Part shown: positions 6,923 through 62,195 of the stretch, in pieces | Numbering within the stretch: position 1 is the stretch's first letter | Layout of the letters: each line of letters begins with the position of its first letter | Virus record (IMG/VR): IMGVR_UViG_3300020394_000267 | Location: 1-64,000 of that record | DNA from: a virus | Strand: one strand, 5' to 3' | DNA: 64,000 bases | The notes under the pieces: generated by a model | What the model was told of the DNA's origin: nothing | The model's database searches: none | Seen by the model: only the letters and a program-made list of their open reading frames with translations | Translations under genes and position numbers: made by a program

Positions 6923-7089
6923 TGGCTTGGGTTGAAGGAATGATTGCCGTTTATGGAATGATATTATCTTTCATGGCCGGCTGGTTAATGCCGAGAGGTA
7001 ATTTTATTAGAAACTCCCAGTTATGGTTGACCAAAAAAATATACAACTGGTTAGCACATGACAAGGAAAAATTGAAGGAGAAGAAATGA
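6922..7089 (+). CDS. Small membrane protein (55 aa)
   Basis: Start/stop overlap with both neighbours; hydrophobic N-terminus. Confidence 0.5.
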   Translation: MAWVEGMIAVYGMILSFMAGWLMPRGNFIRNSQLWLTKKIYNWLAHDKEKLKEKK

Positions 7090-7700
7090 AAATCGAAGTT
7101 GGTCAAAAACTACCACAAGATATCACTTTCCACATGAGGGTAAGGGATGAAAATATGGTAGAACAAGGTGACGAGAATCCATATGTTTGGCAGTTGGTTA
7201 ATTCAACTGACTTGTTCAAGGATAAGAGGGTAGTTCTCTTTTCTTTGCCAGGCGCTTTCACTCCAACATGTTCAACTTATCAACTACCAGACTATGACAA
7301 CAACTATGAGTTGTTTAAAAACAATGGTATTGATGAAGTATATTGTCTATCTGTCAATGATAGTTTTGTTATGAACAAGTGGGGCGATTGGTTGGACATC
7401 GATAATGTTAAGTTTATTCCAGATGGTAGTGCTTATTTTACTGAGCAAATTGGTGCATTGGTAAGGAAAGACAATCTGGGATTTGGAGCGAGGTCATGGA
7501 GATATTCTCTGCTCGCGAATGATGGAGTAGTCGAAGTTGCATTTGTCGAAGATGGATGTGGTGACGATTGTCCTACTGACCCATATGAAGTATCTGACCC
7601 ATACACTATGATGAACTATATCCAAACTGAAAGTCCAGTTGGAAAACAGTATGAGTTAAGTCTTGAAGATGGATTGGGAACAGAAGAAACATTTGCATAA
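7086..7700 (+). CDS. Peroxiredoxin (Prx5/PGdx type)
   Basis: SLPGAFTPTCS, SVNDSFVM, GFGARSWRYS motifs. Confidence 0.93.
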   Translation: MKIEVGQKLPQDITFHMRVRDENMVEQGDENPYVWQLVNSTDLFKDKRVVLFSLPGAFTPTCSTYQLPDYDNNYELFKNNGIDEVYCLSVNDSFVMNKWGDWLDIDNVKFIPDGSAYFTEQIGALVRKDNLGFGARSWRYSLLANDGVVEVAFVEDGCGDDCPTDPYEVSDPYTMMNYIQTESPVGKQYELSLEDGLGTEETFA

Positions 7701-8484
7701 AGTTGATTACGATATAAAACCTTTATCAAAAGAACTCGCAATCGATTTTATACAAACGCATCATTACTCACCGATGATGCCTAAACTTACGAAACACTAT
7801 TTGGGGTGTTTCCTTGAGGGTGAACTAGTTGGTGTTTTGACTCTGGGTTGGGGAACACAACCTCGACAAACAATAAACAAGATGTTTACTGGGTTGGAGT
7901 CAAAACATTACTGGGAGATTGGTAAGATGTGCATGACAGATGAAATGCCAACCAACTCCGAATCACAGATGATATCCAAAGCAATAAAATGGATAAAAGA
8001 AAATACACCAGATGTATTATTTCTTTACACAATGGCAGATGGTATCATGGGTAAATGTGGATATGTATATCAGGCAAGCAATTTTTTATATGGTGGACAA
8101 TACTTCACCCAAGTGTACGAAATAAATGGTGAGAAGGTTCACCCAAGAGCAACAAGAAAATTATGTGAAGAGAACGCAAAGTTCTCTGGTAAAGAGAGAG
8201 TTTTTTGGTTGACTTCAGACTTTATGAAAGAGAAGGGAATCAAAAAAATAGAAGGATATATGTTTAGATATATCTTTCCGCTGAATAAGAAAGCAAAAAA
8301 ATTATTAAAAAAATCAAATATGGAATGGACTAGAATTTATCCAAAAGACCACAATCTAAAATGGTTTGATAAAACTAGCAAACCCAAATTTGAAATTGAA
8401 CAACCCCACTTCACATATGAAGAAGTTCTTCACAACGCGAGAAACATATCTGGTGGTGGGGCATCTTTAAGAGGTATATTATGA
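7693..8484 (+). CDS. Mom-like adenine DNA modification enzyme (GNAT fold)
   Basis: FIQTHHYS, GVLTLG, EIGKMC, NSESQMIS, YTMADG, GYVYQASNFLYGG match the Mu Mom family pattern; start uncertain (7663/7693). Confidence 0.75.
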   Translation: MHKVDYDIKPLSKELAIDFIQTHHYSPMMPKLTKHYLGCFLEGELVGVLTLGWGTQPRQTINKMFTGLESKHYWEIGKMCMTDEMPTNSESQMISKAIKWIKENTPDVLFLYTMADGIMGKCGYVYQASNFLYGGQYFTQVYEINGEKVHPRATRKLCEENAKFSGKERVFWLTSDFMKEKGIKKIEGYMFRYIFPLNKKAKKLLKKSNMEWTRIYPKDHNLKWFDKTSKPKFEIEQPHFTYEEVLHNARNISGGGASLRGIL

Positions 8485-9254
8485 GTACAATTGTTTTAGT
8501 ATCTGGTGGGTTTGACCCACTACATAAAGGTCATCTTGACCTACTACAAGAGGCGAAAAAGTTGGGTGACCATCTAACCGTTGGTTTGAATAGTGATGAG
8601 TGGTTAACTAGAAAGAAGGGGTCACCGTTCATGTCACAGTGGGACAGAATGGATTTGTTGATGAATTTAGAATGTGTTGACCATGTAGTTCCTTTCGATG
8701 ATAATGACGATACTGCTAAAGACTTCATAGAAAAAGCAATTGCTAGTCACGGAATAGACCACAAGTTTATATTTGCTAATGGTGGTGACAGGACAGAAGA
8801 AAACATACCAGAGATGGAACTAAGAGAAAAGTATTCCTTTGCTAATTTAGAGTTTGTCTTTGGTGTTGGTGGAAATAAAACTTATTCTAGTAGTTCGATA
8901 AACAGTGTACAAAGAGAGTGGGGTGGATATAAAGTTATTCACGCGGAAGATTTTGCTAAGGTAAAAATACTAACCATTGATATTAATAAAAGCATTAGTT
9001 ATCAAAGGCACTTTTATCGTGGAGAAATATGGCATGTCATGAATGGACAGGCAATGATTAAAACTAGTAAAGGTAAACCATCAAATTATACATACGACTA
9101 CTTGACTTCTGGTCAACACTTTAGTATAATACCCTACGAATGGCATCAAGTGACAAACATGGGTAACGAACCTTTAAGAATAATTGAAATTCAACATGGG
9201 TCATATGTTGAAGAAGATGATATAGAAAGATATGATGGGGAGGTAGTACATTGA
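8481..9254 (+). CDS. Cytidylyltransferase (RfaE-II/TagD-like) fused to a mannose-6-phosphate isomerase-type cupin
   Basis: SGGFDPLHKGH, FANGGDR; SYQRHFYRGEIW and IIEIQHG cupin motifs. Confidence 0.88.
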   Translation: MSTIVLVSGGFDPLHKGHLDLLQEAKKLGDHLTVGLNSDEWLTRKKGSPFMSQWDRMDLLMNLECVDHVVPFDDNDDTAKDFIEKAIASHGIDHKFIFANGGDRTEENIPEMELREKYSFANLEFVFGVGGNKTYSSSSINSVQREWGGYKVIHAEDFAKVKILTIDINKSISYQRHFYRGEIWHVMNGQAMIKTSKGKPSNYTYDYLTSGQHFSIIPYEWHQVTNMGNEPLRIIEIQHGSYVEEDDIERYDGEVVH

Positions 9255-60898: not shown

Positions 60899-60947
60899 TT
60901 GACATTTGCAAAAAAGATCAGTATAATGGTTGAAAGTTGTATAAATA
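60899..60947 (+). promoter_or_regulatory. Tandem sigma70 (TTGACA-17-TATAAT) and late (TATAAATA) promoters for the tRNA/ncRNA
   Basis: 60899-60927 and 60940-60947; GATC in spacer. Confidence 0.8.
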
Positions 60948-60952
60948 AACAT

Positions 60953-61022
60953 GCGGTGGACGGTATTCGTACAATCCGTTTCCAACGGACAAGGTTAGGT
61001 GAAACTCCTAGACGCCGCTCCA
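60953..61022 (+). tRNA. Degenerate tRNA-Gly(UCC), 70 nt, encoded CCA
   Basis: GCGGTG/CGCCGC acceptor stem, U73, CCA; TCCG-TTTCCAA-CGGA anticodon arm; T-loop TGAAACT; minimal D arm. Confidence 0.75.
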
Positions 61023-61029
61023 ATTTTAC

Positions 61030-61276
61030 AGTTGTAGTCCTAGGCAAAGACTCCATCCTGTCACAAGTTAAACTGCCTCGACTGAACATTGATAGCCATG
61101 TAATGATGCATCAAAACAGTAGGTCGTTAAACCATAAGGAGCCCTGAGCAGTGGCGCAAGGTAACACACAGACCGAAAAAGGCTCAGTCCATCGACTACA
61201 TGAGGGCAGTGATGGCCTCGCATAACACAGATGGACAAAGAGAGCTGGGCATCTCTCTTCATCCTAAACTGCCCAC
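61030..61276 (+). ncRNA. Candidate pseudoknotted ncRNA / 5'-UTR element (possibly manA-motif-like)
   Basis: Several long-range complementary segments; no credible ORF. Confidence 0.5.
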
Positions 61277-61295
61277 TACTAGAAGGACAACAACA

Positions 61296-61457
61296 ATGAA
61301 GTACTTGAGTATATTAGTTGTTTGTATTATGATTACTGCATGTAGCGGAAGAATAAATTTAATCGCTGAATTACCAAAAGACCAAGACCTAGATGTAACA
61401 ATTAAAACATCCAAGTCTGGTGGTGTGCATAAATCTAATACACCAACAGCAGAATGA
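61296..61457 (+). CDS. Small lipoprotein
   Basis: MKYLSILVVCIMITAC lipobox; AAGGA RBS. Confidence 0.55.
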   Translation: MKYLSILVVCIMITACSGRINLIAELPKDQDLDVTIKTSKSGGVHKSNTPTAE

Positions 61458-62102: not shown

Positions 62103-62126
62103 TTTGACACCTCCTGTATTAAGAGA

Positions 62127-62195
62127 TGCGTTCCTTCGGCGGAATTGCCTACTTCCGTCCACCGCTACATTTAGGGTGGATGAACGAATGTAGTC
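62127..62195 (-). promoter_or_regulatory. Glutamine riboswitch (Downstream-peptide / glnA family)
   Basis: CGTTCA...GACGGAAGTAGG...CCGAAGGAACGC; 5' CTACAT pairs with loop ATGTAG (pseudoknot); upstream of DUF4278. Confidence 0.88.

Follow-up and report, generated by a model that had tools for sequence, protein, structure and literature searches.

That Mom transfers glycine was shown only in 2026, which raises the question of how this phage enzyme competes with the elongation factor EF-Tu for glycyl-tRNA (Gly-tRNA) during infection. A locus in an uncultured marine T4-like phage may bear on this question. The window, i.e. the whole stretch of DNA analyzed here (64,000 nucleotides, the first 64 kb of the 91-kb IMG/VR viral record IMGVR_UViG_3300020394_000267, whose completeness is ~47%), encodes a Mom homolog and a 70-nt cloverleaf that resembles tRNA-Gly with the anticodon UCC. 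The gp43 DNA polymerase of the source phage is 47% identical to cyanomyovirus counterparts. A preliminary description, drawn from the sequence alone, proposed that this RNA is a non-proteinogenic (NP) tRNA-Gly dedicated to Mom. We find the element to be a real, conserved, and structurally abnormal tRNA-Gly look-alike, and we place the probability that it acts in trans as an EF-Tu-evading glycyl donor for the phage Mom at about 0.5.

The biochemical background given in the description agrees with the published record. Mom moves glycine from Gly-tRNA-Gly onto adenine N6 in double-stranded DNA (Silva et al. 2026, PMC13219725), and staphylococcal NP tRNA-Gly shows the loss of T-loop and D-loop features and the weak T-stem pairs that had been attributed to it (PMC4574755, PMC7826273). 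The authors of the Mom study propose that the tRNA is recognized at its 3' acceptor end and make no mention of a phage-encoded tRNA (PMC13219725); our literature search found no paper linking phage-encoded tRNA-Gly variants with Mom.

A conserved, structurally abnormal tRNA-Gly look-alike

As the preliminary description had read it, the sequence forms a 70-nt tRNA shape that keeps the identity set of glycyl-tRNA synthetase (GlyRS) and has lost the canonical elbow (Table 1). The identity set is complete and invariant across the variants collected here, comprising G1:C72, C2:G71, G3:C70, U73, C35, C36, and the 3' CCA. The same set is established for the GlyRS of E. coli and T. thermophilus. All four arms of the cloverleaf are present: the acceptor strands (5' GCGGUGG with ACGCCGC) form 6 bp plus a G/A mismatch that never vary, and the anticodon, T, and 3-bp D stems are backed by covariation. 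The anticodon loop is canonical (U33, UCC, A37). The departures lie in the core. Position 8 is an A paired in the D stem, so that the canonical U8 is missing; the D region spans 13–14 nt, with a D loop of 4–5 nt that has no GG; and the T arm (UUAGG-UGAAACU-CCUAG) retains U54, R57, and A58 and carries GA at positions 55–56. The canonical elbow, G18G19 with U55C56, is not present. The T-stem pairs are U49.G65, U50:A64, and A51:U63, for which the variants show solely A/U alternatives. The description had drawn the D stem as GUA/UAC with a UUCG loop; covariation supports A8-C9-G10 with C16-G17-U18 (positions 8–10/16–18) instead.

This structure escapes standard annotation. ARAGORN in default mode calls zero tRNAs in the window or in the entire 91-kb record, and the cloverleaf stays uncalled even at relaxed thresholds that yield 254 false tRNAs in 91 kb, in line with the low score or pseudogene call that had been anticipated. 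Rfam family RF00005 gives nothing at E ≤ 10 in a 501-nt search nor at E ≤ 1 per genome, and the element falls short of the gathering threshold of 29 bits. We attribute the silence of both tools to the deviance of the element, not to its absence. The single-sequence fold is the cloverleaf, with a stability like that of shuffled sequences (z = -0.73); because this score is unremarkable, we relied on covariation instead.

Exact and degenerate pattern scans found the element in 5 contigs from IMG/VR and in 14 from marine metagenomes, mostly those of Tara Oceans. Together these hold 11 distinct versions of the surrounding transcript module and 4 distinct versions of the 70-mer. Two other pattern matches, L086 and L100, were chance hits in unrelated GC-rich DNA. 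Among the four variants, five base pairs are altered on both sides yet still paired; the anticodon and T stems account for two each and the D stem for one. Across the alignment, 96% of cells are paired, compared with 34–45% when the partners are slid by 1–3 columns. Every variable column (16/16) falls outside the acceptor arms, UCCA, UUUCCA, and the T-loop (P = 1.5e-5 under uniform substitution). Judged from these alignments, selection falls on exactly the nucleotides that a GlyRS substrate needs. A tRNA-Gly descriptor that combines G1:C72, C2:G71, G3:C70, and U73 with a stem capped by an NUNCCRN loop and with a T hairpin directly next to the 3' strand of the acceptor has a single match in the 91-kb genome, the element itself, and 0 matches in 200 shuffled genomes. 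A covariance model, R1, likewise finds one copy in the genome.

The rejection by tRNA detectors and the unremarkable fold energy could suggest a decaying tRNA-Gly pseudogene, or a chance cloverleaf without a function of its own. This is contradicted by the compensatory changes in three stems, the invariant loops and acceptor, the consensus promoters that are perfectly conserved, and the empty shuffled genomes, and we regard it as extremely improbable.

A role in translation deserves closer attention. T4 carries a tRNA-Gly(UCC), and the element could be a comparable, ordinary decoding tRNA with an unusual elbow that reads the GGA and GGG codons of an AT-rich phage (genome G+C 38%). The canonical anticodon loop fits such a role, as do the canonical tRNA-Gly(UCC) genes held in the tRNA clusters of related phages and the canonical tRNA-Arg(UCU) that V3-type relatives keep beside the element. 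GGA and GGG account for 40% of the phage's glycine codons, which may be counted in favor of decoding, although codon usage does not tell a decoding from a non-decoding role. Against this stand the loss of U8, G18G19, and U55C56, the short D region, the G7/A66 mismatch, and the weak T stem, each of them unusual for a bacterial elongator tRNA; in combination they put the element under every tRNA detector. The neighboring tRNA-Arg shows that the lineage is able to maintain normal tRNAs, and the same deviations recur in mom-linked elements elsewhere. On this balance, decoding is an improbable function.

No RNA-bearing phage of the clade has a canonical tRNA-Gly, and each has at most one other tRNA. 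In the relative G004 (91% complete), the sole canonical tRNA is Arg(UCU), 84 nt upstream of the cloverleaf. In V3-type relatives the canonical tRNA-Arg(UCU) (L085:4903-4979, likewise in L093 and L099) lies directly ahead of the shared promoter. Clusters of the type "Arg(UCU) then Gly(UCC)" were considered, and the element could not be established as the positional ortholog of their Gly gene.

Gly-like cloverleaves beside and within mom genes

The gene that had been called Mom-like is, from its profile matches, clearly a genuine member of the Mom family (Table 1). Its product is 34% identical to Mu Mom and conserves the essential S124 (as S101). The gene is flanked by a peroxiredoxin-like gene (7086-7700, + strand; Redoxin, E = 2.5e-23) and by a gene for a cytidylyltransferase fused to a mannose-6-phosphate-isomerase/cupin domain (8481-9254, + strand). 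Descriptor and R1 scans found no Gly-type cloverleaf near mom in this genome.

The anticipated co-distribution of the RNA with mom-like genes holds within one clade and does not extend to the cultured Mom phages considered below. Of the RNA-bearing contigs, the three with a completeness of at least 47% (G000, G001, and G004) all encode Mom, which went undetected only in two fragments; both Mom and the RNA are absent from 48 related records, one of them 99% and one 86% complete. Mom homologs at least 90% identical to that of the window occur in this lineage only. The 108-aa gene upstream of the RNA module has homologs in ~600 viral contigs; nhmmer, queried with the intergenic region as well as with a profile of 11 sequences, detected the RNA in none of the best 80 of these, so the module is restricted to a narrow clade.

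Beyond this clade, a more general link between Mom and tRNA-Gly-like elements is supported in two settings, a marine phage lineage in which they abut and prokaryotic loci in which one is embedded in the other. We set 80 diverse viral Mom neighborhoods (790 kb) against 80 loci lacking Mom (438 kb). Descriptor matches numbered 10 at the Mom loci and 0 at the Mom-less loci, with 0 in shuffles, and R1 gave zero matches in the Mom-less controls. In one marine phage lineage, whose Mom is ~50% identical to that of the window, a Gly or Gly-like gene starts 1–6 nt past the mom stop (L183, L187, L188, and L189) or overlaps the mom 5' end (L196). The series from L189 through L187/L188 to L183 looks like successive departures from a canonical tRNA (Table 1), and ARAGORN misses the L183, L187, and L188 elements. 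L183 shares the T-loop UGNAACU with the window element and is the top match of R1 outside the clade (30.8 bits, E = 2e-5), exceeding canonical tRNA-Gly genes. Additional deviant Gly-like elements occur near other Mom lineages (L153 and L143).

R1 also matched 930 nt upstream of mom in the Methylophilales phage Melnitz, but this match is an ordinary tRNA-Trp. Melnitz-type phages have a canonical tRNA-Trp(CCA) 0.9–1.2 kb upstream of mom (L123:491-564 in Melnitz, and in L168, L169, L171, L179, and L208); in the Melnitz record it is annotated within the coding sequence (CDS) of a hypothetical protein.

The prokaryotic set comprised 80 Mom neighborhoods (1.32 Mb). The descriptor matched eight loci, from Planctomycetota, Anaerolineales, and Deltaproteobacteria metagenome-assembled genomes (MAGs), and all eight matches are embedded in the mom open reading frame (ORF) on the same strand, within 0–28 nt of the 3' edge of the Mom homology; none was found elsewhere in the 1.32 Mb. 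The stems of these cloverleaves covary, and their T-loops read GGCGGTT, GGCAGTT, or GTCAGTT except in L273. ARAGORN calls one of them alone, the canonical one. They agree with an earlier report of a tRNA-Gly-like "pseudo-tRNA" inside the mom homologs of 16 Dehalococcoides ssrA islands (McMurdie et al. 2011, PMC3146451). Deviant, GlyRS-compatible tRNA-Gly look-alikes have been physically coupled to mom several times, and the window element deviates in the same manner as the mom-linked ones, with the identity set and CCA kept, the elbow lost, and the D arm shrunk.

Table 1. Features of the window (positions 1 to 64,000) and tRNA-Gly-like elements at mom genes of other loci.
Feature	Location	Strand	Basis or remarks
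sigma70-type (early) promoter, TTGACA-17 nt-TATAAT	60899..60927	+	12/12 consensus; invariant in 11/11 module variants
T4-type late promoter box, TATAAATA	60940..60947	+	sequence; invariant in all variants
tRNA-Gly(UCC)-like cloverleaf, 70 nt	60953..61022	+	covariation, descriptor, model R1
Acceptor stem	60953-60958 with 61013-61018	+	6 bp; G7/A66 unpaired
D stem	60960-60962 with 60968-60970	+	covariation
Anticodon stem	60974-60978 with 60986-60990	+	covariation
Anticodon loop	60979-60985	+	UUUCCAA; anticodon UCC at 60981-60983
T stem	60995-60999 with 61007-61011	+	covariation
T-loop, UGAAACU	61000-61006	+	
U73 and encoded CCA	61019 (U73); 61020-61022 (CCA)	+	
Variable A/U-rich linker, 7-8 nt	61023..61030	+	only poorly conserved stretch between two conserved blocks (11 variants)
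Conserved structured RNA, ~260 nt	61031..61290	+	several hairpins; conserved across 11 variants
53-aa lipoprotein-like ORF	61296..61457	+	signal peptide with lipobox-like ...ITAC; present in all variants
mom, GNAT fold	7663..8484	+	PF25680 201.8 bits (cut-off 27.1), E = 1.2e-59; phrog_1384 E = 4.6e-47
tRNA-Gly(UCC) heading tRNA cluster	L183:934-1005		shortened D region and UGCAACU T-loop
tRNA-Gly(UCC) heading tRNA cluster	L187:4555-4626		shortened D region
tRNA-Gly(UCC) heading tRNA cluster	L188:1983-2054		shortened D region
tRNA-Gly(UCC) heading tRNA cluster	L189:3263-3336		canonical
Embedded tRNA-Gly(CCC)-like cloverleaves, ~70 nt each	L269, L271, L272, L273, L282, L285, L286, L288		3' part of mom ORF

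Transcript setting and proposed use of the element

The preliminary description presented the element as an RNA with its own sigma70 and late promoters. Cloverleaf and promoters stand, with all 12 sigma70 consensus positions and the late box TATAAATA in place, but the RNA does not end at the CCA and continues into ~260 nt of further RNA and a 53-aa ORF. The order is the same in every variant: promoter, TATAAATA, cloverleaf, linker, ~260-nt RNA, and lipoprotein-like ORF. By this arrangement the cloverleaf is predicted to be the 5' domain of a longer conserved transcript, not a free-standing gene. The early start would be expected near 60933-60936, leaving a leader of 17–20 nt ahead of G1. From the box-to-start spacing usual in T4 late promoters, the late start would fall at or within ~2 nt of G1 (60953). 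Across the 11 variants, conservation drops exactly past the CCA and returns 8–9 nt later, a pattern expected where a tRNA 3' end is followed by a cleavage site, and one that singles out the linker as a candidate for 3' processing. Conservation in the module peaks just beyond the CCA. In the downstream RNA, two hairpins contain compensatory pairs, and there are probable pseudoknots, one of them pairing a loop with downstream sequence (GGGCA with UGCCC), as well as a variable insertion at ~61090-61125. This RNA matches no Rfam family at E ≤ 10 apart from noise, and the 53-aa ORF matches no Pfam or PHROG family. Farther along, on the - strand, a glutamine riboswitch aptamer (62125-62188; RF01739, 60 bits, E = 1e-10) lies upstream of a small ORF.

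This setting invites the explanation that the cloverleaf is a tRNA-shaped processing or stability module (a target of RNase P or RNase Z/E, or a 5' cap) for the downstream RNA or the lipoprotein mRNA, and is not charged with glycine. In all 11 variants the cloverleaf runs on into the same RNA and lipoprotein gene, conservation in the module is highest directly past the CCA, and the alignment fold offers an alternative pairing in which the UCCA end is buried. Such a module would need no more than a tRNA shape, yet the stems change between variants and it is the complete GlyRS set, the UUUCCA loop, and U73-CCA that do not. In V3 the alternative acceptor pairing is disrupted, and the similarly deviant look-alikes on or in the mom genes of other lineages would be left without an account. 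We consider this explanation unlikely.

Phage tRNAs can also counter tRNA-targeting defenses. The early and late promoters are both very strong and suggest an abundant RNA; together with the invariant acceptor and anticodon loop, they would suit a decoy or counter-defense RNA, which might soak up a host factor that targets tRNA-Gly (a GNAT toxin acetylating Gly-tRNA-Gly, or a tRNA nuclease) or replace inactivated host tRNA-Gly; GNAT toxins specific for tRNA-Gly have been noted (PMC13219725). For an uncultured phage such as this one, however, there is no known host factor to name as the target, and the model would not explain why such elements repeatedly lie within or next to mom genes. A replacement tRNA must moreover decode well, and the deviant core argues otherwise. 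A decoy or replacement role is decidedly improbable.

The reading we prefer, a glycyl donor that evades EF-Tu and serves Mom in trans, would work as follows. Two promoters of its own, one early (sigma70-type) and one late (TATAAATA), would keep the element transcribed throughout infection as the leading domain of a longer RNA. Its 5' end would arise by initiation at G1 in the late transcript or by RNase P cleavage of the early transcript, and the encoded CCA would be freed by a cut in the variable A/U linker. Host GlyRS would charge the element because G1:C72, C2:G71, G3:C70, U73, C35, and C36 are all present and invariant. The product would bind poorly to EF-Tu and the ribosome because the G18G19-U55C56 contacts and U8 are missing and because pairs 49:65, 50:64, and 51:63 are U.G or A/U. 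Poor binding would thereby create a private Gly-tRNA pool, which Mom would use in trans to place glycine onto adenine N6 of the phage DNA; the adduct would rearrange to carbamoylmethyl-adenine, blocking host restriction. Charging, processing, EF-Tu evasion, and use by Mom are the steps that we infer. The term "self-contained", which the description had applied to the system, overstates the case, since no GlyRS is encoded. With 53 kb between it and mom, and with promoters of its own, the element cannot be a cis regulator of the mom mRNA. For the whole mom-linked class we favor a trans role, most simply that of glycyl donor.

Several observations weigh against a dedicated donor. All three E. coli tRNA-Gly isoacceptors serve Mu Mom, with tRNA-Ala inactive (PMC13219725). 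The five cultured Mom-bearing phages whose Mom homologs are nearest (Melnitz, ET-ABTNL-9, Y8A, Phynn, and P12002L) have no copy of the element, so Mom has no general need of such an RNA, and by the descriptor ~55 Firmicute Mom loci are also without one. Given the isoacceptor use by Mu Mom and these phages and loci, a private donor is not required generally. Within the window phage, the cloverleaf lies far downstream of mom, and the essential R111 of Mu Mom aligns to a lysine (K88). The co-occurrence within the clade is effectively a single evolutionary event of limited weight, and the link in this phage rests on that narrow-clade co-occurrence and on analogy to other lineages. In marine phages, mom often sits inside tRNA clusters in which Gly is not enriched overall (8/72 tRNAs by ARAGORN), so mere proximity to a tRNA is partly explained by location. 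Three loci (L189:2391-2466, L195:6669-6744, and L199:5048-5123) have a canonical tRNA-Ala(UGC) directly at the mom 5' end or overlapping it. As for the structure, the acceptor register is beyond proof by covariation because the stem never varies, and RNAalifold returns a competing UGGA:UCCA pairing that buries the UCCA end; with one pair broken in variant V3, that register is less supported than the structure reported here. Lastly, the invariable fusion of the cloverleaf to the 260-nt RNA and the lipoprotein gene is left unexplained by the donor model.

The tRNA-Ala genes beside mom raise a question of their own, namely whether some Mom homologs use alanyl-tRNA, which Mu Mom does not.

Dedicated non-ribosomal tRNA-Gly is known from staphylococci, and a viral one serving DNA modification would be new. 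In its widest form our proposal is that the element is the first virus-encoded non-proteinogenic tRNA, charged by GlyRS, escaping EF-Tu and the ribosome, and feeding Mom, and that the whole class of mom-linked look-alikes consists of trans substrates and not of cis regulators; we advance this tentatively, at slightly less than even odds. If true, a phage carrier that evades EF-Tu would answer the competition for Gly-tRNA as staphylococci did for cell-wall synthesis, and viruses and chemistry on DNA would join the known settings of dedicated non-ribosomal tRNAs. Such a carrier would further account for the tRNA-Gly "pseudo-tRNAs" described in mom homologs in 2011 and since then without explanation, and it would mean that a class of functional tRNA-like genes has been overlooked by standard annotation. 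The RNA and the enzyme form a defined pair directly suited to the published in vitro Mom assay.

Comparison with known systems

The nearest ordinary counterparts are the canonical tRNA-Gly(UCC) genes of T4-like phages (L173, L186, L189, and L196), with which the element shares the GCG.../...CGCUCCA acceptor, the YUUCCAA loop, the encoded CCA, and a location in a tRNA region, with a canonical tRNA-Arg(UCU) adjacent in L085. In the canonical genes the D region is 18 nt long and contains GG, the T-loop reads TTCGATT, and both ARAGORN and RF00005 call them, whereas the phage element has a D region of 13–14 nt and a TGAAACT loop and is called by neither. Phage Mu, which has no tRNA gene, draws on any tRNA-Gly isoacceptor of its host; the window phage, by contrast, encodes a look-alike, and the activity and product of its Mom are predictions from sequence.

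With the embedded elements of Dehalococcoides and the MAGs, the phage element has in common a conserved, covarying Gly cloverleaf, UCCA, a deviant T-loop, a D-loop without GG, and a Mom-bearing genome. Those elements carry the anticodon CCC and lie inside the mom CDS, whereas the phage element carries UCC, lies 53 kb from mom, and has early and late promoters of its own; there is no sequence homology between them. Embedded elements cannot show trans action, and the remote phage element argues for it.

The closest functional parallel is offered by the staphylococcal NP1–NP3/NEW tRNA-Gly(UCC) of S. aureus and S. epidermidis, the donors for FmhB, FemA, and FemB. These tRNAs carry the GlyRS identity set, as listed in PMC7826273, and their lineage is confined to staphylococci (PMC7826273). 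They are without G18/G19 and U55/C56 (PMC4574755), and their T stem has the weak EF-Tu combination A49-U65, U50-A64, and A51-U63 (PMC7826273). EF-Tu sequestration of proteogenic Gly-tRNA inhibits FmhB and limits the Fem transferases, and NP tRNA-Gly evade EF-Tu (PMC7826273). The phage element likewise has the anticodon UCC and the full GlyRS set, is without G18/G19 and U55/C56, and has weak A/U-type pairs at 50:64 and 51:63; as in staphylococci, it shares its genome with a transferase that depends on aminoacyl-tRNA and belongs to the GNAT/Fem structural world. Unlike the NP tRNAs, the element is viral, its sequence similarity to them is limited to generic tRNA-Gly features, and its core is far more reduced (A8 paired, a 3-bp D stem, a 4–5-nt D loop, and the G7/A66 mismatch). 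It is also fused to a longer RNA, and where the NP tRNAs serve a peptidoglycan precursor, its proposed acceptor is an adenine in DNA. For the NP tRNAs, charging and EF-Tu evasion have been measured; for the phage element, they are predicted. By analogy, the element would work like the staphylococcal NP family while being no member of its lineage.

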